Source: Chlamydiota bacterium
GTDB lineage: Bacteria > Chlamydiota > Chlamydiia > Chlamydiales > JAAKFR01
Direction: 5' to 3'
Assembly: GCA_013287335.1 (NCBI GenBank)
Contig: JABDDZ010000003.1
Location: 1,104-54,776, forward strand
DNA: 53,673 nucleotides
A model generated the notes under the pieces. It ran no database searches. It was not told the DNA's origin and saw nothing but the letters and a program-made list of their open reading frames with translations. The first letter of the stretch is position 1. Each line of letters starts with the position of its first letter. Positions 19,476-28,231 of this stretch are shown here, piece after piece. The position numbers and the translations under genes were made by a program.

Positions 19476-21365
19476 TTAAACAATTTTTGGAACATTACGC
19501 GGGAGATTTTTCAGCTCGGGTCTACTTTTTTTTGCAACACGGTAGTCGCGGAGTTCTGGCTCATCGATGTGTCTTGTATCGACGGGCTCATAGGTGATAA
19601 GAGGTTCGCCCTTGAGAGGGTCATAGGTAGCAATGGTCGTTTTAAGCCAATTTTTATCATCGCGCTCCGGGAATTCGGGTTTAAAATGGGATCCGCGAAA
19701 TTCATTGCGAAGAAGAGCGCCCTTTGTGATCACTAGGGCTAGTTCGAGCATCGATTGGAATTGATGGGCAAACTGAAGGGTCTGGTTAACAAAAAGCCCC
19801 CGGTCATCAAGAGAGATCTGTTGATATCTCTCTCGTATCTCTTTGATTTTAGCAATTGTCTCTTCAAGGAGAGGGTTTGTCCGTTTCACCGTTACATTGC
19901 GCACCATATAGTCGGCAAGTTCCTCGTGGAGCTTAAAGACGTTCTCCTTTCCCTTGCGGTTCAAAAGCTCTTTTATAAAGCCCTCTTCGCAGGCTACCGC
20001 CTCCTCAAAGATCTTCTCCTCTGCAGCTGCAAAAGAAGAGGCGTGGGTCTCAATGTAGCGAGGCGCTTCCATACCGACGACAAGTCCGCCAAAGATGCAG
20101 GATAATAGAGAATTCGCTCCTAAACGATTAGCTCCATGATATTGATAATCAGACTCTCCCACATTGAAAAGCCCGGGAATATTGGTCATCTGCCGAAAGC
20201 GCTTTAACCTATCAGGATCATCGGCTGCCGGCCAGTCGACCCACCCCCCTCCCATTGAGTAGTGGACTGCAGGGAAGATCTTCATAGGAACTTTTCTCGG
20301 ATCCTCTCCTGTGAACTTCTGGTAGATATCTAAAACCGATTCGAGTTTATGCTTTACCTCCTCGCTAAGATGGGTCACATCGAGATAGACTTGTGATTCC
20401 CCCTCAACGCCTAACCCCAATTCGCAGACGCGGAGCACCTCTCGGGCTCCGACATCCCGTCCGACGAGATTGCCATAAGCTGGGTACATCTCTTCCAAAA
20501 AATACCAGGGCTGCCCGCTCTTTCCACAAGGAATCATCTCTCCATTGGGGGCTTGAATTTGTTTAGAAGAGTCTCCCCAGACCCAGACTCTCCCCCCCTC
20601 TCCACGGACCGATTCAGAGATAAGCCTTAGCTTATCGTGAGCGGGAATTGCTGTCGGATGTATTTGGATAAATTCCCCATTGGCATAGCGCATCCCCTGC
20701 ATAAAGAGGCGCCCATTGGCAGCTCCTGTACAAAAGGTGGAGTTGGTCGATTTTTTAAAGATGAGTCCGGGCCCCCCGCTTGCAACGACAATCGCATCGC
20801 CTCGCAGCACTTCGAGCTTCTGGTTAAAGAGATTCATCAGTACAATCCCGCGCGCTTTCCCATCATGATCTTTCACAAGACGCAGGAATTCATGGTTTTC
20901 AAATTTTTCGACCATTCCTACTGTTTCAAAGCGGCGCACCTGCTCATCGAGGGTATAGAGAAGCTGCTGCCCCGTTGAGGCGCCGCAAAAAACCGTCCGA
21001 TGGTAGAGGGTTCCCCCAAAGCGGCGCACATCCAGATGTCCCGAAGGACTCCGGTTAAAGGGACAGCCAAAACGATCCATCATATCGATAATATGGGGGG
21101 CTGCAAGACACATCTCGAGCACGGGGGGTTGATTTGCTAAAAAATCTCCCCCCTTGATTGTGTCATAAGCATGAATTAGAGGAGAGTCCTCCTCCCCCTT
21201 TGTATTCATAGAGGCATTGATTCCCCCTTGCGCGCAGACAGAGTGGGAACGTTTCACTTTAGTCACCGAAACAATTTTGACATGGCACCCATTTTCAGCA
21301 AGGCGCATCGCAGCTGATAATCCCGCAAGCCCTCCCCCAATTACTATAACTTCTTTTTTATCCAT
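19476..21365 (-). CDS. sdhA: Succinate dehydrogenase flavoprotein subunit
   Basis: GGGLAGL, RSHSVCAQGG, QIHPT, HYSMGG and HGANRLGANSL. Confidence 0.98.
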   Translation of the reverse strand: MDKKEVIVIGGGLAGLSAAMRLAENGCHVKIVSVTKVKRSHSVCAQGGINASMNTKGEEDSPLIHAYDTIKGGDFLANQPPVLEMCLAAPHIIDMMDRFGCPFNRSPSGHLDVRRFGGTLYHRTVFCGASTGQQLLYTLDEQVRRFETVGMVEKFENHEFLRLVKDHDGKARGIVLMNLFNQKLEVLRGDAIVVASGGPGLIFKKSTNSTFCTGAANGRLFMQGMRYANGEFIQIHPTAIPAHDKLRLISESVRGEGGRVWVWGDSSKQIQAPNGEMIPCGKSGQPWYFLEEMYPAYGNLVGRDVGAREVLRVCELGLGVEGESQVYLDVTHLSEEVKHKLESVLDIYQKFTGEDPRKVPMKIFPAVHYSMGGGWVDWPAADDPDRLKRFRQMTNIPGLFNVGESDYQYHGANRLGANSLLSCIFGGLVVGMEAPRYIETHASSFAAAEEKIFEEAVACEEGFIKELLNRKGKENVFKLHEELADYMVRNVTVKRTNPLLEETIAKIKEIRERYQQISLDDRGLFVNQTLQFAHQFQSMLELALVITKGALLRNEFRGSHFKPEFPERDDKNWLKTTIATYDPLKGEPLITYEPVDTRHIDEPELRDYRVAKKSRPELKNLPRNVPKIV

Positions 21366-21371
21366 AAACTC

Positions 21372-22301
21372 TTAGGTGTGTATCTGGAAGGTGATATAGA
21401 CGCCCCAAGCAGCCATTAGACCCATCACAGAGACAATAAACATGAGGCCATTGCAAATTTTGCGGAAAATCGATTGGGCTCTCCGCGTGATAATGATTCC
21501 CCAGGTAATAAGAAATGTCCATAAGCCGTTAAAGGCATGGTAGGCTGATGCAATCACTAAAATGGAATAGAGAATAACCATCAGGGGGCTTTTAAAGGTC
21601 TCTCTCACAACAAGAAAATAGGCGGCTCCAGCGCTCGGAGCTACAGCTATGACTTGATTCTCTTTCAGTTTTTTTATCCCCCCTATCTTTTGCTCCTCCT
21701 CTAACATCTGGCTCTTAGTATAAAGTTGAGTGCCCAACTTTTCGGCTGTGTCATAGAGTCCAGCGTCACGGTTAAGTTTAATGATATAGTTGCTACTGAG
21801 GTCATGGTGAACAAGGAGAGGATTCTCCACAAAACGCATCTGAATGACATGGGCAAGGATGCCCACTACAAGAATCCAAGAGGTAATCCTCTGCCAGCTA
21901 TAAGCGCGATTACGGGGATATTGGGGAAGGGAGGGGGCGCTTCCATCTGTAATCTTTGAGTTCATCTTGCCTTGCATGGCATAGAACATCCCCCATCCCG
22001 CGTGAACAAGAAAAGGAAAGGCCAAGAGAAGTAGCTCAACAACCCTTAAATAGGGGATCGCATGGATCTTATTTACAAGAGAGATAAAGCCTGCGCCATT
22101 ATCTTGAGTGTAAAAAGCTGCGAGAGAATTTACAAGCAGATGTTCAAAGAGGTATATAACAATCCATAGGCCCAACAATGAATGAAGCCTCCGCATCACA
22201 AAGGCTCTTGGAAGAGCTCTCTTCTCCTCTCCGGGAAAGACCTTCTCTTTTGTAGGCGTTGTCGTTGTCAATAGCTTTGCGCTGCTAAATTTTTTTTCCA
22301 A
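21372..22301 (-). CDS. sdhC: Succinate dehydrogenase cytochrome b558 subunit (start uncertain)
   Basis: RRLHSLLG, EHL, HAG, QRITS and YHAFNGLWTF..TWG heme-ligand motifs; position in the operon. Confidence 0.92.
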   Translation of the reverse strand: MEKKFSSAKLLTTTTPTKEKVFPGEEKRALPRAFVMRRLHSLLGLWIVIYLFEHLLVNSLAAFYTQDNGAGFISLVNKIHAIPYLRVVELLLLAFPFLVHAGWGMFYAMQGKMNSKITDGSAPSLPQYPRNRAYSWQRITSWILVVGILAHVIQMRFVENPLLVHHDLSSNYIIKLNRDAGLYDTAEKLGTQLYTKSQMLEEEQKIGGIKKLKENQVIAVAPSAGAAYFLVVRETFKSPLMVILYSILVIASAYHAFNGLWTFLITWGIIITRRAQSIFRKICNGLMFIVSVMGLMAAWGVYITFQIHT

Positions 22302-22400
22302 TCTACAACGCCTCCCACCTTATGACAAGCAAAAAATTTTGTTGCGGGAGTTATATTTTTTAGCTGAGATCCTTATTGCTACTGCTCTCTGATTAAATTC

Positions 22401-22429
22401 TTGTTTTTTGACAGATTTTTTGTTATAAT
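22401..22429 (+). promoter_or_regulatory. Sigma66-type promoter of F-box gene 1
   Basis: TTGTTT-17 nt-TATAAT with extended TG; AAGGAG SD before ATG 22462. Confidence 0.6.
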
Positions 22430-22461
22430 CACTTAACATTTAAATATTAAGGAGACAAACA

Positions 22462-24225
22462 ATGCATATTCAATCTTTTCCCCTCGAAATTAGCTGCATG
22501 ATTTTGGGACACCTTGATGATGATAGTATTAAAAATGCAGTTCTAGTAAGTCGTTACTGGTATCATGCAGTAGGTGTCTACACGACTCCGAGGCGAAAAG
22601 CAGCTTTCCAATATTTGCAACCCATTTTAAAAGAAGTATGTGATGCTATTGCTAACTGTTACAAAACACGTAATAAAATACTTGAAGCCTTCTCTCAAGA
22701 TCCTACGAAACACATAAAAAATATTAATATTACTTGTTTTCGAAAAAAACAAATTGCCGGCCTGGAAAAAAAATGGTTGGAGAAGTTTTTAGAAAAAGCC
22801 TCGCTAGATAAATTACAATTACTAGAGGTCAAGTTAGAGGATACACGTTTTTTTGCTGATTTGCCCATAACGCTTATTATTAAGAAGAAATTGAAACTTC
22901 AAAGACCTCTCGAAAGGCTCTTTGATTTAGTACAAGAACGCCTAGGAACAAGTATCAGCCATTCTCTGAAAAAACTTAACCTCACTACATTTAGTATAAT
23001 TAAACATTGCCCTCATCATGGCTTTTTTTTATTAAAACTTTTTTCTTATTATTATCGCACTAATTTCCCTCTACAAATGGTAAAGGATATAGATAAAGAT
23101 CATGAAGCCAAACCTTTTGGCAATGATATATTAGAAATGACTGTTTGTACAGCCCAAAGCCCGCAAGATGGAGCATATATAAACTATCCTCTAGTTACAT
23201 TCTCGCCCGATAGATATGAGTCTATAGGTCAGAATCGGGGGCCATTTCTGGGCTCACTCCTACTTCAGAAGCGGGGGCCATTTCTGGGCTCACTCCTACT
23301 TAATAGAAAATATAATACCCAAGCTTTTTCTATTTATCTCTGGTTATGCACCTTCTCACGCGAAGTTCCAGGACACAATAAATTCTTGAATTTTTCTTAT
23401 CGTGTATATGTCAAGGTTTGTCAAATTATTCATGATCATCATTCAAGCTTTGGTTTTTTTCCTAAAAACCCTGAGTTATCCTCAAAATGTTTAGAATTTT
23501 ATAAACATATGGCTGAGAAAAAGTTACATGCTCTCGAAAAAAAACAAAAAAAAATTGAACCAGCCCCTTCAGGAGAACCTCTTTTTATAGGGTGTGATGA
23601 CGCAGAGCCAGAGGTTATTACGGAGCTAGTTCAAAAAAGATTAGTCGCAGAACGGGAAAATCCTATAGATAAAGACGAAATAGTAAAAAAACTGAATCAA
23701 GAATTCATTATCCTAGCGAAGCATTACAGAGATGAATCGAAATTCGAAGACTTATTGAAATTAATGAAGTTTTTAAATTACTCGGACCAGAAAGATTTTC
23801 TACATTTGTTTATGTCCATTTTAGAAATTTTTGACTCGAATCCCCAAGTAATAGTTAAATTAATACAAAAAGTAAATAATTATCATAGATTATTAAATAA
23901 TAAAGGTATCTCATACTCCACAAAAATTTGTTTTCTTTCAAAACATTTGCTATCTACTCGTATTGTGGATTTGAAATCTCAGCATGATTTCTTAAAAATG
24001 TTTAAATTATCCAAATATGAAAGATTCCAAATTGCCTCAACGATGTTACATATAATCTCAAGTAACGGGCGGAACGAGCGGTTGGCTCAAAGACTGCCCC
24101 TAGTGATGGCTTTAATGGGTGTTTCCCTCCTTCCATCTGAGGCTCAATTGCCCAGCCCCGAGGCGGGTGAAGGCAAAGGAGAACCTATGGAAGTCGATGA
24201 CGAATGCGAAAAAAAATACTATTAA
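22462..24225 (+). CDS. F-box-like domain protein, paralog 1 (putative secreted effector)
   Basis: N-terminal FPLEISCMILGHLDDDSIKNAVLVSRYWYHAV matches the F-box consensus LP.EI...I...L....L....VSR.W. AT-rich gene. Confidence 0.85.
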   Translation: MHIQSFPLEISCMILGHLDDDSIKNAVLVSRYWYHAVGVYTTPRRKAAFQYLQPILKEVCDAIANCYKTRNKILEAFSQDPTKHIKNINITCFRKKQIAGLEKKWLEKFLEKASLDKLQLLEVKLEDTRFFADLPITLIIKKKLKLQRPLERLFDLVQERLGTSISHSLKKLNLTTFSIIKHCPHHGFFLLKLFSYYYRTNFPLQMVKDIDKDHEAKPFGNDILEMTVCTAQSPQDGAYINYPLVTFSPDRYESIGQNRGPFLGSLLLQKRGPFLGSLLLNRKYNTQAFSIYLWLCTFSREVPGHNKFLNFSYRVYVKVCQIIHDHHSSFGFFPKNPELSSKCLEFYKHMAEKKLHALEKKQKKIEPAPSGEPLFIGCDDAEPEVITELVQKRLVAERENPIDKDEIVKKLNQEFIILAKHYRDESKFEDLLKLMKFLNYSDQKDFLHLFMSILEIFDSNPQVIVKLIQKVNNYHRLLNNKGISYSTKICFLSKHLLSTRIVDLKSQHDFLKMFKLSKYERFQIASTMLHIISSNGRNERLAQRLPLVMALMGVSLLPSEAQLPSPEAGEGKGEPMEVDDECEKKYY

Positions 24226-24254
24226 TAACATTCTAAAAGAACTTAAACTTCTTA

Positions 24255-24373
24255 TTGAACGGAGCTAAGCCGCAATCTTAGGTCTAAGGCCTACGTTAGG
24301 CGAGCCATGCAAATCGGCCCTATCCAAAACCTCGAAAGAATCACAATGTGCCCTTTAGGACTGAGTTCTTCAA
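24255..24373. mobile_element. 119-bp MITE-like element TTGAACGGAGCTAAGCCGCAATCT...GTTCTTCAA, copy 1
   Basis: Near-identical copy at 26255, shorter variant at 38704; TTGAA/TTCAA termini. Confidence 0.75.
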
Positions 24374-24409
24374 ATCCTGATTGCTATCTACTGCTCTCTT
24401 ATTAAATTC

Positions 24410-24438
24410 TTGTTTTTTTACAGATGTTTTATTATAAT
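24410..24438 (+). promoter_or_regulatory. Promoter of F-box gene 2
   Basis: TTGTTT-17 nt-TATAAT, homologous to the 22401 promoter. Confidence 0.6.
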
Positions 24439-24470
24439 CCATTAGCTTTTAAAGTTTAACGAGACAAATA

Positions 24471-26225
24471 ATGTCTATTCACCCTCTTTCCTCTGTGAAA
24501 CTTTTTTTTCCCTTAGAGCTTAGCTGCATGATTGCAGAAAACCTTGATGATGATAGTATTGGAAATGCAGCTCTAGTAAGTCGTCAGTGGTATGATGCAG
24601 TAGTTGGCTTCAAGAGTTTATCGCGAAGAGACGCTTTCAGACATTTGCAACCCATTTTACAAGAAGTATGTGATGCTATTGCTAAATGTTGCAAAATATC
24701 TAAAAAAATACTTGTAAAATTCTCTCAAAACCCTACGGAATACATAAAAAATACTGCTTGTTATCGGATAGAACAGATTGCCGAGGAGGAGAAAAAATGC
24801 TTGGAAGAGTTTTTATGCAACGCCACGGAAAAAGCATTAGAATCCCTAGAGGACAGTTTAAAAGAGGATACACCTTTTGCTGATTTGCCCATAACGCTTA
24901 TTATTAAGAAGAAATTGAAACTTCAAAGACCTCTCGAAAGGCTCTTTAATTTAGTACAAAAACGCGTGACAAAGAGACTCTGCCATCCTGTTTCTCCTCT
25001 TTCGAAAGGCACTATATTTAGTATAGTTAAACTTTGTCCTTATCATGGCTTTTTTTTATTAAAACTTATTTCTTATTATAATAATTTTAATGATTTCCCT
25101 CTACAAATGATAAAGGATATAGATAAAGATCATGAAGCCAAACCTTTTGGCGATGATATATTAACAGCGACTGTTCATACAAGGCGAGGAGTAGGTGGAG
25201 CATATGTGAACCATGCTATAGCTATATTCTTGCCCGATAGAAGCAATAGGAAGCAAGATTATCTTCGAACTCCAAATGAGGGGCCATTTCTGGGCTCACT
25301 CCTACTTAATAGAAAATATAATACCCAAGCTTTTTCTATTTATCTCTGGTTATGCACCTTTTCACGCGAAGAAAACAAGAAATTCTTGAATTTTTCTTAT
25401 CGTGTATATGTCAAGGTTTGTCAAATTATTCATGATCATCATTCAAGCTTTGGTTTTTTCCCTGAAAAGCCTGAGTTATCCTCAAAATGTTTAGACTTTT
25501 ATAAACATATGGCTGAGAAAAAGTTACATGCTCTCGAAAAAAAACAAAAAAAAATTGAACCAGCCCCTTCAGGAGAACCTCTTTTTATAGGGTGTGGTGA
25601 CGCAGAGCCAGAGGTTATTACGGAGCTAGTTCAAAAAAGATTAGCCGCAGAACGGGGAAATCCTATAGATAAAGACGAAATAGTAAAAAAGCTGAATCAA
25701 GAATTCATTACCCTAGCGAAGCAATACAGAAATGAATCGAAATTCGAAGACTTATTGAAATTAATGAAGTTTTTAAATTACTCGGACCAGAAAGATTTCC
25801 TAAAATTGTTTAATTACATTTTAGCACTTTATGGACGAATTTCCCAAGTAGTAGTTAAATTAATACAAAAAATAAACAATTTTCATAGAATGCGGCTAAT
25901 TGCGAACGGATTTTTGCATCCTACAAAAATTTATTTTATTTCAGTCTATTTGACACATACTCTTAATGAGGATTTGAAATCTCAGCTTGACTTCTTGAAG
26001 GAGTTTGAATTAACCAAATATGAAAGATTCGACATTGCAAGAAGGATGTTAGAGACAATCTCAGGCGGGCAAAGCGAGCGGTTGGCTAAAAAACTGCCCC
26101 TGGTGATGGCTTTAATGGGTGTTTCCCCCCTTCCATCTGAGGCTCAATTGCCCAGCCCCGAGGCGGGTGAAGGCAAAGGAGAATCTATGGAAGTCGACGA
26201 CGAATGCGAAAAAAAATACTATTAA
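24471..26225 (+). CDS. F-box-like domain protein, paralog 2
   Basis: FPLELSCMIAENLDDDSIGNAALVSRQWYDAV; collinear with paralogs 1 and 3. Confidence 0.85.
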   Translation: MSIHPLSSVKLFFPLELSCMIAENLDDDSIGNAALVSRQWYDAVVGFKSLSRRDAFRHLQPILQEVCDAIAKCCKISKKILVKFSQNPTEYIKNTACYRIEQIAEEEKKCLEEFLCNATEKALESLEDSLKEDTPFADLPITLIIKKKLKLQRPLERLFNLVQKRVTKRLCHPVSPLSKGTIFSIVKLCPYHGFFLLKLISYYNNFNDFPLQMIKDIDKDHEAKPFGDDILTATVHTRRGVGGAYVNHAIAIFLPDRSNRKQDYLRTPNEGPFLGSLLLNRKYNTQAFSIYLWLCTFSREENKKFLNFSYRVYVKVCQIIHDHHSSFGFFPEKPELSSKCLDFYKHMAEKKLHALEKKQKKIEPAPSGEPLFIGCGDAEPEVITELVQKRLAAERGNPIDKDEIVKKLNQEFITLAKQYRNESKFEDLLKLMKFLNYSDQKDFLKLFNYILALYGRISQVVVKLIQKINNFHRMRLIANGFLHPTKIYFISVYLTHTLNEDLKSQLDFLKEFELTKYERFDIARRMLETISGGQSERLAKKLPLVMALMGVSPLPSEAQLPSPEAGEGKGESMEVDDECEKKYY

Positions 26226-26254
26226 TAACATTCTAAAAGAACTTAAACTTCTTA

Positions 26255-26373
26255 TTGAACGGAGCTAAGCCGCAATCTTAGGTCTAAGGCCTACGTTAGG
26301 CGAGCCATGCAAATCGGCCCTATCCAAAACCTCGAAAGAATCACAATGTGCCCTTTAGGGCTGGGTTCTTCAA
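26255..26373. mobile_element. 119-bp MITE-like element, copy 2
   Basis: Exactly 2000 bp downstream of copy 1; differs only at a couple of positions near the right end. Confidence 0.75.
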
Positions 26374-26405
26374 ATCCTGATTGCTACTATTCCCTTATTA
26401 AATTC

Positions 26406-26435
26406 TTGTTTTTTTGACAGATGTTTTATTATAAT
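26406..26435 (+). promoter_or_regulatory. Promoter of F-box gene 3
   Basis: TTGTTT-18 nt-TATAAT, with a poly-T tract in the spacer. Confidence 0.55.
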
Positions 26436-26467
26436 CCATCAGCTTTTAAAGTTTAACGAGATAAATA

Positions 26468-28231
26468 ATGTCTATTCAACCTTTTTGCTTTGTGGAACAT
26501 TTGCCCTTAGAAGTCAGCTGCATGATTTTTGGAAAACTTGATGATGATGATAGTATGAAAAATGCAGCTCTAGTAAGCCGTCAGTGGCATCATGCTGTAG
26601 ATACCTCCAAGAATACGGGGCGAGGAGAAGCTTTCCAATATTTGCAACCCACTTTAAAAAAAGTATGTGATGCAATAGCTGAATCTTGCAAAGTATCAAA
26701 ACAAAGACTTGAAAACTTCTCTAAAAACCCTAAGAAACATGTTAAAAATATTACTTTGTATCGAAAAGGACAAATTGCCGAGGAGGAGAAAAAATGGTTG
26801 GAAAAGTTTTTAGACAAAGCCTCGCAACAATCATTAGAATCATTAGAGATCAAGTTAGAGGATACGTCTTTTTTTGCTGATTTACCCATAACGATTATAA
26901 TTAAGAGGAAGTTAAAAACTAAAACACCTTGCAAAGAGCTTCTTGATTTAGTGCAAAAACGCCTGGGAAAAAGTATCTGCCCTCCTGTTCTGAAAAAATT
27001 TAACTGCACTATATTTAGTATAATTAAACTTTTTCCTTATCACGGCTTGTTTTTATTAAAACTTATTTCTCGTAATTATAACAATGATTTCCCTCTACAA
27101 ATAATAAAGGATATAGATAAAGATCATGAAGCCAAACCTTTTGGTGATGATATATTAGAAGTGACTGTTCATACAACTCCAAAAGCGCAAAATGGAAAAT
27201 ATGTGAACTGGACTCTACCTACATTCTTAGCCGATAGAAGTCAGAGGGTGCAAGATCATGAGTTTGTAGCTCATACTAAAGGGCCATTTCTGGGCTCACT
27301 CCTACTTAATAGAAAATATAATACCCAAGCTTATTCTATTTATCTCTGGTTATGCACCTTTTCACGCGAAGAAAACAAGAAATTCTTGAATTTTTCTTAT
27401 CGCGTATATGTCAAGGTTTGTCAAATTATTCATGATCATCATTCAAGCTTTGGTTTTTTCCCTGAAAAGCCTGAGTTATCCTCAAAATGTTTAGACTTTT
27501 ATAAACATATGGCTGTGAAAAAGTTACGTGCTCTCGAAAAAAAACAAAAAAAAATTGAACCAGCCCCTCCAAGAGAACCTCTTTTTATAGAGTGTGGGGA
27601 TCTAAACCCACAGGTTGCGGAGCTAATTCAAAAAAGAGTAGAAGCAAATCAATGGGTAAATTCTCTAAAGAAAGAGAGAGAAATAAAAAATCTGAATCAA
27701 GAATTCATTACCCTAGCGAAGCGTTACAGAGATGCATCGAAATTCGAAGATTTATTGAAATTAATGAATTTTTTAAATTATTCGGATCAGGAAGATTTCG
27801 TAAAATTGTTTTCATCGATTTTAGGACTTTGTGACCGAAGTCCCCAATTAGTAGTTAAATTAATACAAAAAATAAACAATTTTCACAGAATGTCAATGAC
27901 TGCAAATGGAATCTTGCATTCTACAAAAAATTATTTTGTTGCCCAACATTTGGTATTTACTCATACTGAGGATTTGAAATCTCAGCTTGATTTCTTGAAG
28001 GAGTTTAAATTAACCAAATATGAAAAATTCCACATTGCAATAAGGATGTTAAATACAGTGTTACGCGAGCAAAGCGAGCGGTTGGCTAAAAAACTGCTGC
28101 CCCTGGTGATGGCTTTAATGGGTGTTTCCCCCCTTCCATCTGAGGCTCAATTGCCCAGCCCCGAGGTGGGTGAAGGCAAAGGAGAAGAGTCTATGGAAGT
28201 CGACGACGGATGCGAAAAAACCTACGATTAA
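26468..28231 (+). CDS. F-box-like domain protein, paralog 3
   Basis: LPLEVSCMIFGKLDDDDSMKNAALVSRQWHHAV; stop codon overlaps the tatD stop. Confidence 0.85.
   Translation: MSIQPFCFVEHLPLEVSCMIFGKLDDDDSMKNAALVSRQWHHAVDTSKNTGRGEAFQYLQPTLKKVCDAIAESCKVSKQRLENFSKNPKKHVKNITLYRKGQIAEEEKKWLEKFLDKASQQSLESLEIKLEDTSFFADLPITIIIKRKLKTKTPCKELLDLVQKRLGKSICPPVLKKFNCTIFSIIKLFPYHGLFLLKLISRNYNNDFPLQIIKDIDKDHEAKPFGDDILEVTVHTTPKAQNGKYVNWTLPTFLADRSQRVQDHEFVAHTKGPFLGSLLLNRKYNTQAYSIYLWLCTFSREENKKFLNFSYRVYVKVCQIIHDHHSSFGFFPEKPELSSKCLDFYKHMAVKKLRALEKKQKKIEPAPPREPLFIECGDLNPQVAELIQKRVEANQWVNSLKKEREIKNLNQEFITLAKRYRDASKFEDLLKLMNFLNYSDQEDFVKLFSSILGLCDRSPQLVVKLIQKINNFHRMSMTANGILHSTKNYFVAQHLVFTHTEDLKSQLDFLKEFKLTKYEKFHIAIRMLNTVLREQSERLAKKLLPLVMALMGVSPLPSEAQLPSPEVGEGKGEESMEVDDGCEKTYD

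Follow-up and report, generated by a model that had tools for sequence, protein, structure and literature searches.

A genome-specific tandem array of three chlamydial F-box genes at the sdhC-tatD junction, candidate adaptors of host SCF ubiquitin ligases

The window analysed here (53,673 nt; positions 1,104 to 54,776 of contig JABDDZ010000003.1, assembly GCA_013287335.1; all coordinates below follow the numbering of the window) comes from a chlamydial genome and holds three closely related genes in tandem between sdhC and tatD, each of which starts with a predicted F-box. Bacterial F-box effectors are known in chlamydiae and Legionella (PMC4209131), and the locus raises the question of what family these genes belong to, what their products would do and how the array came to be built and kept at this place. 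Our answer is that the array probably represents a genome-specific chlamydial F-box family, the products of which would be exported, dock on Skp1 and serve as surrogate substrate receptors of host Skp1-cullin-F-box (SCF) ubiquitin ligases.

Three F-box genes in tandem

The array and its parts are as follows.

22462-24225, + strand: copy 1, open reading frame (ORF) of 587 amino acids (aa), F-box at residues ~3-37 (nt ~22468-22572)
24471-26225, + strand: copy 2, ORF of 584 aa, F-box at residues ~13-51 (nt ~24507-24623)
26468-28231, + strand: copy 3, ORF of 587 aa, F-box at residues ~10-48 (nt ~26495-26611)
22369-22461, + strand: upstream region of copy 1, recurring 5' of copies 2 and 3 (repeat family D11)
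23274-23669, + strand: homogenised core of copy 1, with equivalents at 25280-25669 (copy 2) and 27280-27669 (copy 3) (families D9 and D1)
28097-28186, + strand: C-terminal tail segment, also at 24094-24183 and 26094-26183 (repeat family D10)
27590-28132, + strand: predicted helical-repeat-like domain of copy 3, residues ~375-555, delimited by AlphaFold confidence
23216-23301, + strand: 36-nt internal tandem duplication of copy 1 (repeat family D13, spacing 36)

A preliminary description, made from the letters of the sequence, had listed three collinear paralogs of 584-587 aa with stops at 24225, 26225 and 28231, and the ORFs are exactly so; the core that it had called invariant was found in all three copies by alignment. 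The three proteins are mutually 66-71% identical, the DNA repeat period across most of the unit is exactly 2000 bp from start to start, and the stop of copy 3 overlaps that of the convergent tatD gene by 4 nt. Copy 1 alone carries, at the start of the invariant core, an in-frame tandem duplication of 36 nt (12 codons) that repeats the first 12 residues of the core, the GPFLGSLLL stretch being present twice.

We scored the proteins with hmmscan against the Pfam profiles PF12937 (F-box-like, cut-off of 24.3 bits) and PF00646 (F-box, cut-off of 20.5 bits). Copy 3 passed both cut-offs (29.9 and 25.6 bits), copy 2 passed that of F-box (21.8 bits) and fell just under that of F-box-like (23.6 bits), and copy 1 fell just under both (22.7 and 19.5 bits); in a six-frame search of the genome all three copies exceeded the cut-off (33.7, 27.6 and 26.3 bits, the last being copy 1). 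A fourth paralog, located on another contig, passed both cut-offs (28.9 and 24.8 bits). When a profile of the four N-termini was searched against PDB sequences, F-box proteins of SCF ligases occupied 10 of the 12 rows at E <= 10, with individually weak scores and with Cdc4 as the top row (E = 0.0014, 41 residues aligned). Key F-box positions (Pro, Glu, Ile, Leu and Trp) are invariant, and copy 1 has 7 codons fewer in its leader than the other copies. On the strength of the Pfam matches at cut-off and of these 10 rows, we take the N-terminal F-box, already named as the start of each protein in the preliminary description, to be genuine.

The fourth paralog (469 aa; contig C8, locus L004, 1234-2643, - strand; GC content at third codon positions, GC3, of 0.30) is solitary, flanked by a cupin gene on one side and a CorC/CBS gene on the other. 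It is 36% identical to the array copies and has an intact frame and an F-box; relative to the array copies it is missing one segment of ~45 residues and some of the variable linker. The motifs His-Glu-Ala-x-Pro-Phe-Gly-x-Asp, Tyr-Asn-Thr-Gln-Ala and Lys-Val-Cys-x-Ile-Ile-x-Asp-His-His-Ser and a short conserved C-terminal tail are shared between it and the array copies. Within the cluster C..IIHDHH, which may bind metal according to the preliminary description, 4 of 4 paralogs share the Cys, Asp, His-His and Ser, but the first His is replaced by Gln in the fourth.

Homologue searches

Beyond the F-box, the remaining ~535 aa matched no Pfam family beyond chance and gave nothing credible in NCBIfam. 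LRR, ankyrin, WD40, Kelch, TPR and BTB had no Pfam match at E <= 1 in any copy, and the earlier remark that LRR, ankyrin, WD40 and Kelch repeats are lacking is borne out at this threshold. The whole-protein profile, run against PDB sequences, returned the Cdc4 F-box as its sole row (E = 0.29). An exhaustive phmmer search of 1.84 billion representative proteins yielded 2 matches, both of them paralogs from this genome. Using copy 3, the C-terminal profile and the fourth paralog as queries, a word index of 5.8 billion clusters returned proteins of the same genome only, as did pattern and tblastn scans of genome and metagenome contigs in two collections. No homologue was found among 60 relatives (0/60), and a profile search of 400 genomes of the phylum gave no credible match in the 399 others, one further genome being unscored; the single outside match of that search had 9 internal stops (E = 8.8e-4).

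Literature searches, covering open-access text only, retrieved no paper on such a family, and a description in print is unlikely since no homologue was found in public protein collections. By these searches, the family appears to be new and confined to one genome, in line with the suggestion in the preliminary description of a possibly undescribed family, no homologue having been found outside this genome in the collections searched; its general kind, that of chlamydial F-box effectors, is already known.

Other F-box genes and known systems

The six-frame search found 14 F-box-like matches in 11 ORFs of this genome, namely the three copies, the 469-aa paralog on contig C8, a 527-aa ORF on contig C4, two ankyrin proteins on contig C21 and an array of four ORFs on contig C19; all F-box genes of the genome are low in GC3 (0.24-0.36). 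F-box-like matches also occur in 26 of the 28 other genomes of the bacterial family (0-24 each). The array on contig C19 (locus L049, - strand; ORFs at 918-2960, 4276-6156, 6453-8498 and 8912-10876) adjoins lpxB. It resembles the present array in being tandem, in the same genome and low in GC3 (0.24-0.26), in joining F-box-like matches to an unrecognised remainder and in sharing a ~120-nt element, but it has four ORFs of 626-681 aa, three of which contain two F-box-like matches in the six-frame search. A kinship of the remainder of its proteins with the family described here was rejected (hhalign probability of 0.2%).

The closest published parallels are the F-box families of Parachlamydiaceae (Neochlamydia NEX1a and NEX2, Protochlamydia arrays), which are likewise chlamydial, tandem by duplication and confined to lineages, and for which the role proposed here, that of secreted adaptors of host SCF ligases, has been put forward (PMC4209131). 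Other chlamydial families with N-terminal F-boxes proved to have type III signals that functioned when assayed heterologously (PMC4209131). NEX/PEX-type families carry LRR or TPR domains (BTB in PEX1; OTU or DUF294 in some) (PMC4209131), whereas no such domain was detected here. Their dN/dS values range from 0.29 to 0.63, with no convincing recombination reported (PMC4209131); here dN/dS is ~1 and the conversion mosaic is clear (see below). There is no sequence relation to the NEX/PEX-type families, in that the protein searches gave proteins of this genome only.

The F-boxes of eukaryotic SCF proteins (Cdc4, FBXL17, FBXO42, FBXW7/8/11 and beta-TrCP) align to the N-terminal ~40 residues of the present proteins, but the WD40, LRR and Kelch domains of the former are absent here and everything past residue ~50 is unrelated. 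AnkB of Legionella pneumophila, which is delivered by a type IV system, uses ankyrin repeats, none of which matched here, and has no sequence similarity to the array proteins beyond the F-box. It is an F-box and ankyrin effector that engages the host SCF (PMC4209131), and the logic of an F-box joined to a helical-repeat binding module would be the same.

Structure models

AlphaFold2 was run with an input alignment of four sequences only. The full-length model is entirely helical, with a mean pLDDT (predicted local distance difference test) of 49.7, and only residues ~340-555 form a confident part, in which most 10-residue blocks have a pLDDT of 67-87 and three have 43-50; for residues ~375-555 of copy 3, most blocks lie at 67-87 and two at 47 and 50-51. 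The core has a pLDDT < 50 in the full-length model and of 40.8 when folded alone (best Z of 5.9). Foldseek returned no match at E <= 0.001 against PDB and BFVD, with cullin repeats and designed armadillo proteins as the weak top rows. Using VIA-align (48,161 chains), residues ~375-555 scored Z values of 9.3-6.5 against designed helical repeats, Get4, VPS35 and importins.

ESM Atlas models of the fourth paralog were nearest to TPR, HEAT and PPR clusters (TM 0.30-0.37); the models of the Atlas are poor (pLDDT of 0.42 and 0.45), and all structural rows had TM <= 0.37. F-box clusters of the Atlas scored 0.83-0.85 for the fourth paralog, and the feature search of the Atlas gave no usable matches for the C-terminal region. 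As modelled, the protein is best described as all-alpha with a predicted helical-repeat-like C-terminal domain, the likeness being unspecific. The new fold suggested in the preliminary description is not supported: the confident part is generic and helical-repeat-like, and both core models are unusable at their pLDDT values.

An identity of the core as a DHH phosphoesterase was considered, on account of the Asp-His-His motif and of Atlas rows, and dropped, PF01368 and PF02272 giving no match at E <= 1. Atlas rows naming DHH proteins had TM 0.24-0.28 and came from the model with a pLDDT of 0.42, and when the two core models were checked for the alpha/beta fold of DHH proteins with its parallel sheet, both consisted of helices only, at pLDDT < 50.

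Gene conversion and selection

At the nucleotide level, the cores of copies 1 and 2 are 97-99% identical and that of copy 3 matches them at 83-97%; the tail segment is 98-99% identical in all three copies. Counted per 150 nt, differences number 20-41 over most of the gene and drop to 1-8 in the core; for copies 1 and 2 they stay at 2-6 over the 300 nt that follow the core. In the core and in the tail, dS and dN are each <= 0.12. We tested for conversion by comparing the longest shared runs, counted at polymorphic sites only, with permutations. Copies 1 and 2 share a run of 17 polymorphic sites, a length reached in 0 of 10,000 permutations, and copies 1 and 3 share a run of 9 (P = 0.0007); the best run shared by copies 2 and 3 was not significant in the permutation test (P = 0.09). 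The copies exchange sequence by gene conversion, and the core and the C-terminal tail are homogenised.

Each pair of copies differs at 273-299 nucleotides and by 9-13 indel events, all of them multiples of 3. A neutral simulation gives an expectation of ~11 stop codons per gene, and none of the 5000 simulated genes came through intact. Given intact frames and in-frame indels only, against this expectation, the reading frames are under selection. Whole-gene dN/dS, a rough pairwise estimate from three sequences here and below, is 1.00-1.16 (NG86) or 1.21-1.40 (YN00), and that of the N-terminal half is 1.06-1.50 (NG86). Outside the homogenised parts, a dN/dS near or above 1 without broken frames argues for selection for diversity rather than decay; diversifying selection on the array is the simplest reading of these values, one that rough pairwise estimates cannot prove.

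Insertion at the sdhC-tatD junction

The array is flanked by the following genes.

21372-22301, - strand: sdhC-like membrane subunit gene, left flank, with a weak Sdh_cyt match; homologues lie near tatD in relatives
28228-28998, - strand: tatD, right flank (PF01026, 240.5 bits)

The position between sdhC and tatD claimed in the preliminary description rests on a clear TatD match on the right and, on the left, on context together with a weak match to Sdh_cyt (20.2 bits, under the cut-off of 25.8); the left neighbour sits directly upstream of sdhA and sdhB. That the array is more AT-rich than its flanks, as was also claimed, is seen in its GC content (0.30-0.41 versus 0.46-0.51). GC3 is 0.30-0.31 in the array genes and 0.41-0.50 in sdhA, sdhC, tatD and dsbD, and the codon composition of the array is foreign.

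We then compared 27 loci of relatives (L007-L033) with a flank of ~1.5 kb. In 26 of them dsbD adjoins tatD. In 17, sdhC lies inside the ~1.5-kb flank of tatD, the gap between the two being at most 215 nt in 12 loci and 317-1227 nt in 5; in the 10 others sdhC is beyond 1.5 kb and the slot is filled by unrelated ORFs, for example ATPase-like and RibB-like reading frames (not domain-scanned). None of the 27 loci contained a relative of the array protein. Since sdhC and tatD are near neighbours in relatives without the array protein, the array is an insertion at this junction, which is variable in the bacterial family and possibly a hotspot for recombination or insertion.

The genome carries two FHIPEP export-gate genes (of type III or flagellar type), and the window also contains a gene for a TLC nucleotide (ATP/ADP) transporter at 7944-9536 (PF03219, 635 bits); we take both to be expected of an obligate intracellular, chlamydia-type bacterium. 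A second, weaker copy of the TLC transporter is found on contig C4.

Assembly support

The genome is a 1.14-Mb short-read metagenome-assembled genome (MAG) of 50 contigs, 60% complete, and the single DNA run that holds the stretch is labelled soil metagenome, with no RNA run listed for it. Logan contigs of this run covered 29 of 30 bins, and 40 of 46 pieces were at least 99% identical to the window. A contig of 11,483 nt runs from the bacterial flank to 419 nt into copy 1, and one of 4,308 nt runs from copy 3 into tatD, both with no mismatches. Because none of the run's Logan contigs spans the whole array, it is the assembly that assigns the variable segments to particular copies. Word depth, which is not the same as copy number, was 687-1074 in copy-specific segments and 729-762 in the flanks, whereas the shared core unitig reached 2127, a pattern compatible with three copies.

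Upstream regions and a dispersed element

Promoter-like sequences were found before each copy.

22401-22406 and 22424-22429, + strand: TTGTTT and TATAAT before copy 1, with a 17-nt spacer, followed by AAGGAG before the ATG
24410-24438, + strand: TTGTTT, 17-nt spacer and TATAAT before copy 2
26406-26435, + strand: TTGTTT, 18-nt spacer and TATAAT before copy 3

A perfect TATAAT ends 32 nt before each of the three ATGs and is followed by a purine-rich ribosome-binding stretch. A scan with the consensus promoter yielded 13 sites in the region, against 18.6 expected, and none of them lies in the spacers; a terminator scan found none after the genes, and promoter and terminator counts were at or below those of shuffles. 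The hairpin after the stop codon had z = -0.46, and a search of Rfam on 21000-29500 returned two chance-level rows only. The preliminary description had given each copy its own promoter; the shared upstream arrangement of TTGTTT, a spacer of 17-18 nt and TATAAT speaks for this and the consensus scan does not, and separate, putative promoters for the three copies are plausible.

Both spacers of the array contain a dispersed element.

24254-24372, + strand: dispersed element of ~120 nt, genome-specific repeat, spacer between copies 1 and 2
26254-26372, + strand: dispersed element of ~120 nt, genome-specific repeat, spacer between copies 2 and 3

The element is intergenic, ~100-122 nt long, has a fixed head of 24 nt and a fixed tail of 23 nt, and occurs in full, truncated and head-to-head hairpin forms. 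It lies ~30 nt past the stops of copies 1 and 2 and is also present in the spacers of the F-box array on contig C19. A third copy in the window lies at 38703-38800, and others are on contigs C1, C2, C9, C11, C13, C18, C19 (two), C22 and C25 (two). Blastn gave 14 matches in this genome, which is 60% complete, and none in the 28 genomes of the bacterial family. It is absent from Rfam, and a consensus RNA structure had no support (-0.84 kcal/mol; seven rows, three of them with slightly off coordinates). The element may be a MITE- or REP-like repeat (miniature inverted-repeat transposable element or repetitive extragenic palindrome) that supplied homology for unequal crossing-over. Logan contig ends at 24293 and 26254 run into the reverse complement of the head of the element and resemble the hairpin form on contig C25; these loose ends could mean that part of the population is arranged differently, or else be an assembly-graph artefact.

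Interpretation and alternatives

We propose that an insertion between sdhC and tatD brought the family to this locus, where amplification in place gave rise to the three copies. The products would be exported into the host cell, most likely by a type III system, where the N-terminal F-box would dock on host Skp1 and the protein would act as a surrogate substrate receptor of a host SCF ubiquitin ligase, with the C-terminal helical-repeat-like domain as its likeliest target-binding surface. Duplication, conversion and diversification would together keep up a limited repertoire of receptors that differ in specificity. The preliminary description had already read the proteins as SCF adaptors delivered by a type III system; the F-box, the orphan family and the intracellular-type context of that reading are supported, and its new fold is not.

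Several observations weigh against this proposal. In the F-box region, the AlphaFold model places helices at 14-23 and 27-45 with a pLDDT of only 27-39, too low to confirm the three-helix fold. The F-box and its leader have a dN/dS of 1.45-1.79 (NG86; 1.74 and 2.34 by YN00 in the two computable pairs), which is unexpected because the module must fit a conserved host protein. The likeness of the C-terminal domain to helical repeats reached Z values of at most 9.3, under the bar of ~13 that the tool sets for helical proteins, and the alpha-solenoid repeat families (ARM/HEAT/TPR) had no Pfam match at E <= 1. Conservation is strongest in the core and not in the putative binding domain, and the invariant polar residues of the core are more suggestive of an active or ligand site than of a scaffold. 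A dN/dS near 1 is also compatible with recently relaxed constraint, and the mosaic could partly be an artefact of short-read MAG assembly with mis-phased segments.

In the main alternative, an unlikely one, the core (residues ~205-365 of copy 3) is a new domain that is catalytic or binds a metal or ligand, and the F-box, instead of recruiting substrates for ubiquitination, either places it on Skp1/cullin or times its own destruction. The core is kept identical among the copies, its His, Glu, Asp, Asn, Gln, Cys and Asp-His-His-Ser residues are invariant even in the 36%-identical fourth paralog, and other chlamydial families join the F-box to enzyme domains such as OTU and DUF294 (PMC4209131). 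However, no enzyme family emerged from the sequence and fold searches, both core models consist of helices only at low confidence, and the near-identity of the core extends to synonymous sites and so reflects gene conversion as much as constraint; invariance over four sequences is, moreover, weak evidence. The fuller version, that the core is a new catalytic or metal-binding domain which the F-box delivers to host Skp1/cullin and which modifies or disables the ligase machinery or its clients rather than only presenting substrates, is quite unlikely in our estimation. With an enzymatic core, the fast-evolving helical parts may tune which complexes or hosts are hit.

Far from any diversified function, the copies might instead be redundant duplicates drifting under relaxed constraint in a process of birth and death and heading for loss, which would fit a dN/dS of ~1 over the variable parts, a family limited to one genome and the birth-and-death with drift proposed for chlamydial F-box families (PMC4209131). 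We consider this very unlikely, because three frames of 584-587 codons are intact where neutrality predicts ~11 stops per gene (0/5000), indels are in-frame only, a perfect TATAAT is retained before every copy, and the much older fourth paralog (36% identity) also keeps its frame and F-box. It is highly improbable that the tandem array or its placement is a mis-assembly of repeated eukaryotic or other (host) DNA. The incompleteness and fragmentation of the MAG, the Logan contigs that break inside the array without spanning it, and a composition unlike that of the flanks could be so explained, but mismatch-free contigs join both bacterial flanks to copies 1 and 3, copy-specific word depth is near that of the flanks with the shared core at 2127 (depth again not being copy number), the sequence upstream looks bacterial (TATAAT, Shine-Dalgarno-like AAGGAG), and the other F-box genes of the genome are equally low in GC3.

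Significance

F-box effectors are a recognised route by which amoeba-associated bacteria hijack host ubiquitination, and their targets are almost entirely unknown. As it stands, the array adds one more lineage-specific effector family to a phylum known for them; if the core were an enzyme, it would constitute a new effector domain. Gene conversion together with a dN/dS near 1 contrasts with the purifying selection, and the lack of clear recombination, described for the large published families (PMC4209131). With four paralogs in one genome, no known repeat class, a sharply conserved core and fast-changing flanks, the family is a compact study case and a natural experiment on which parts of such a putative adaptor are fixed and which vary freely.

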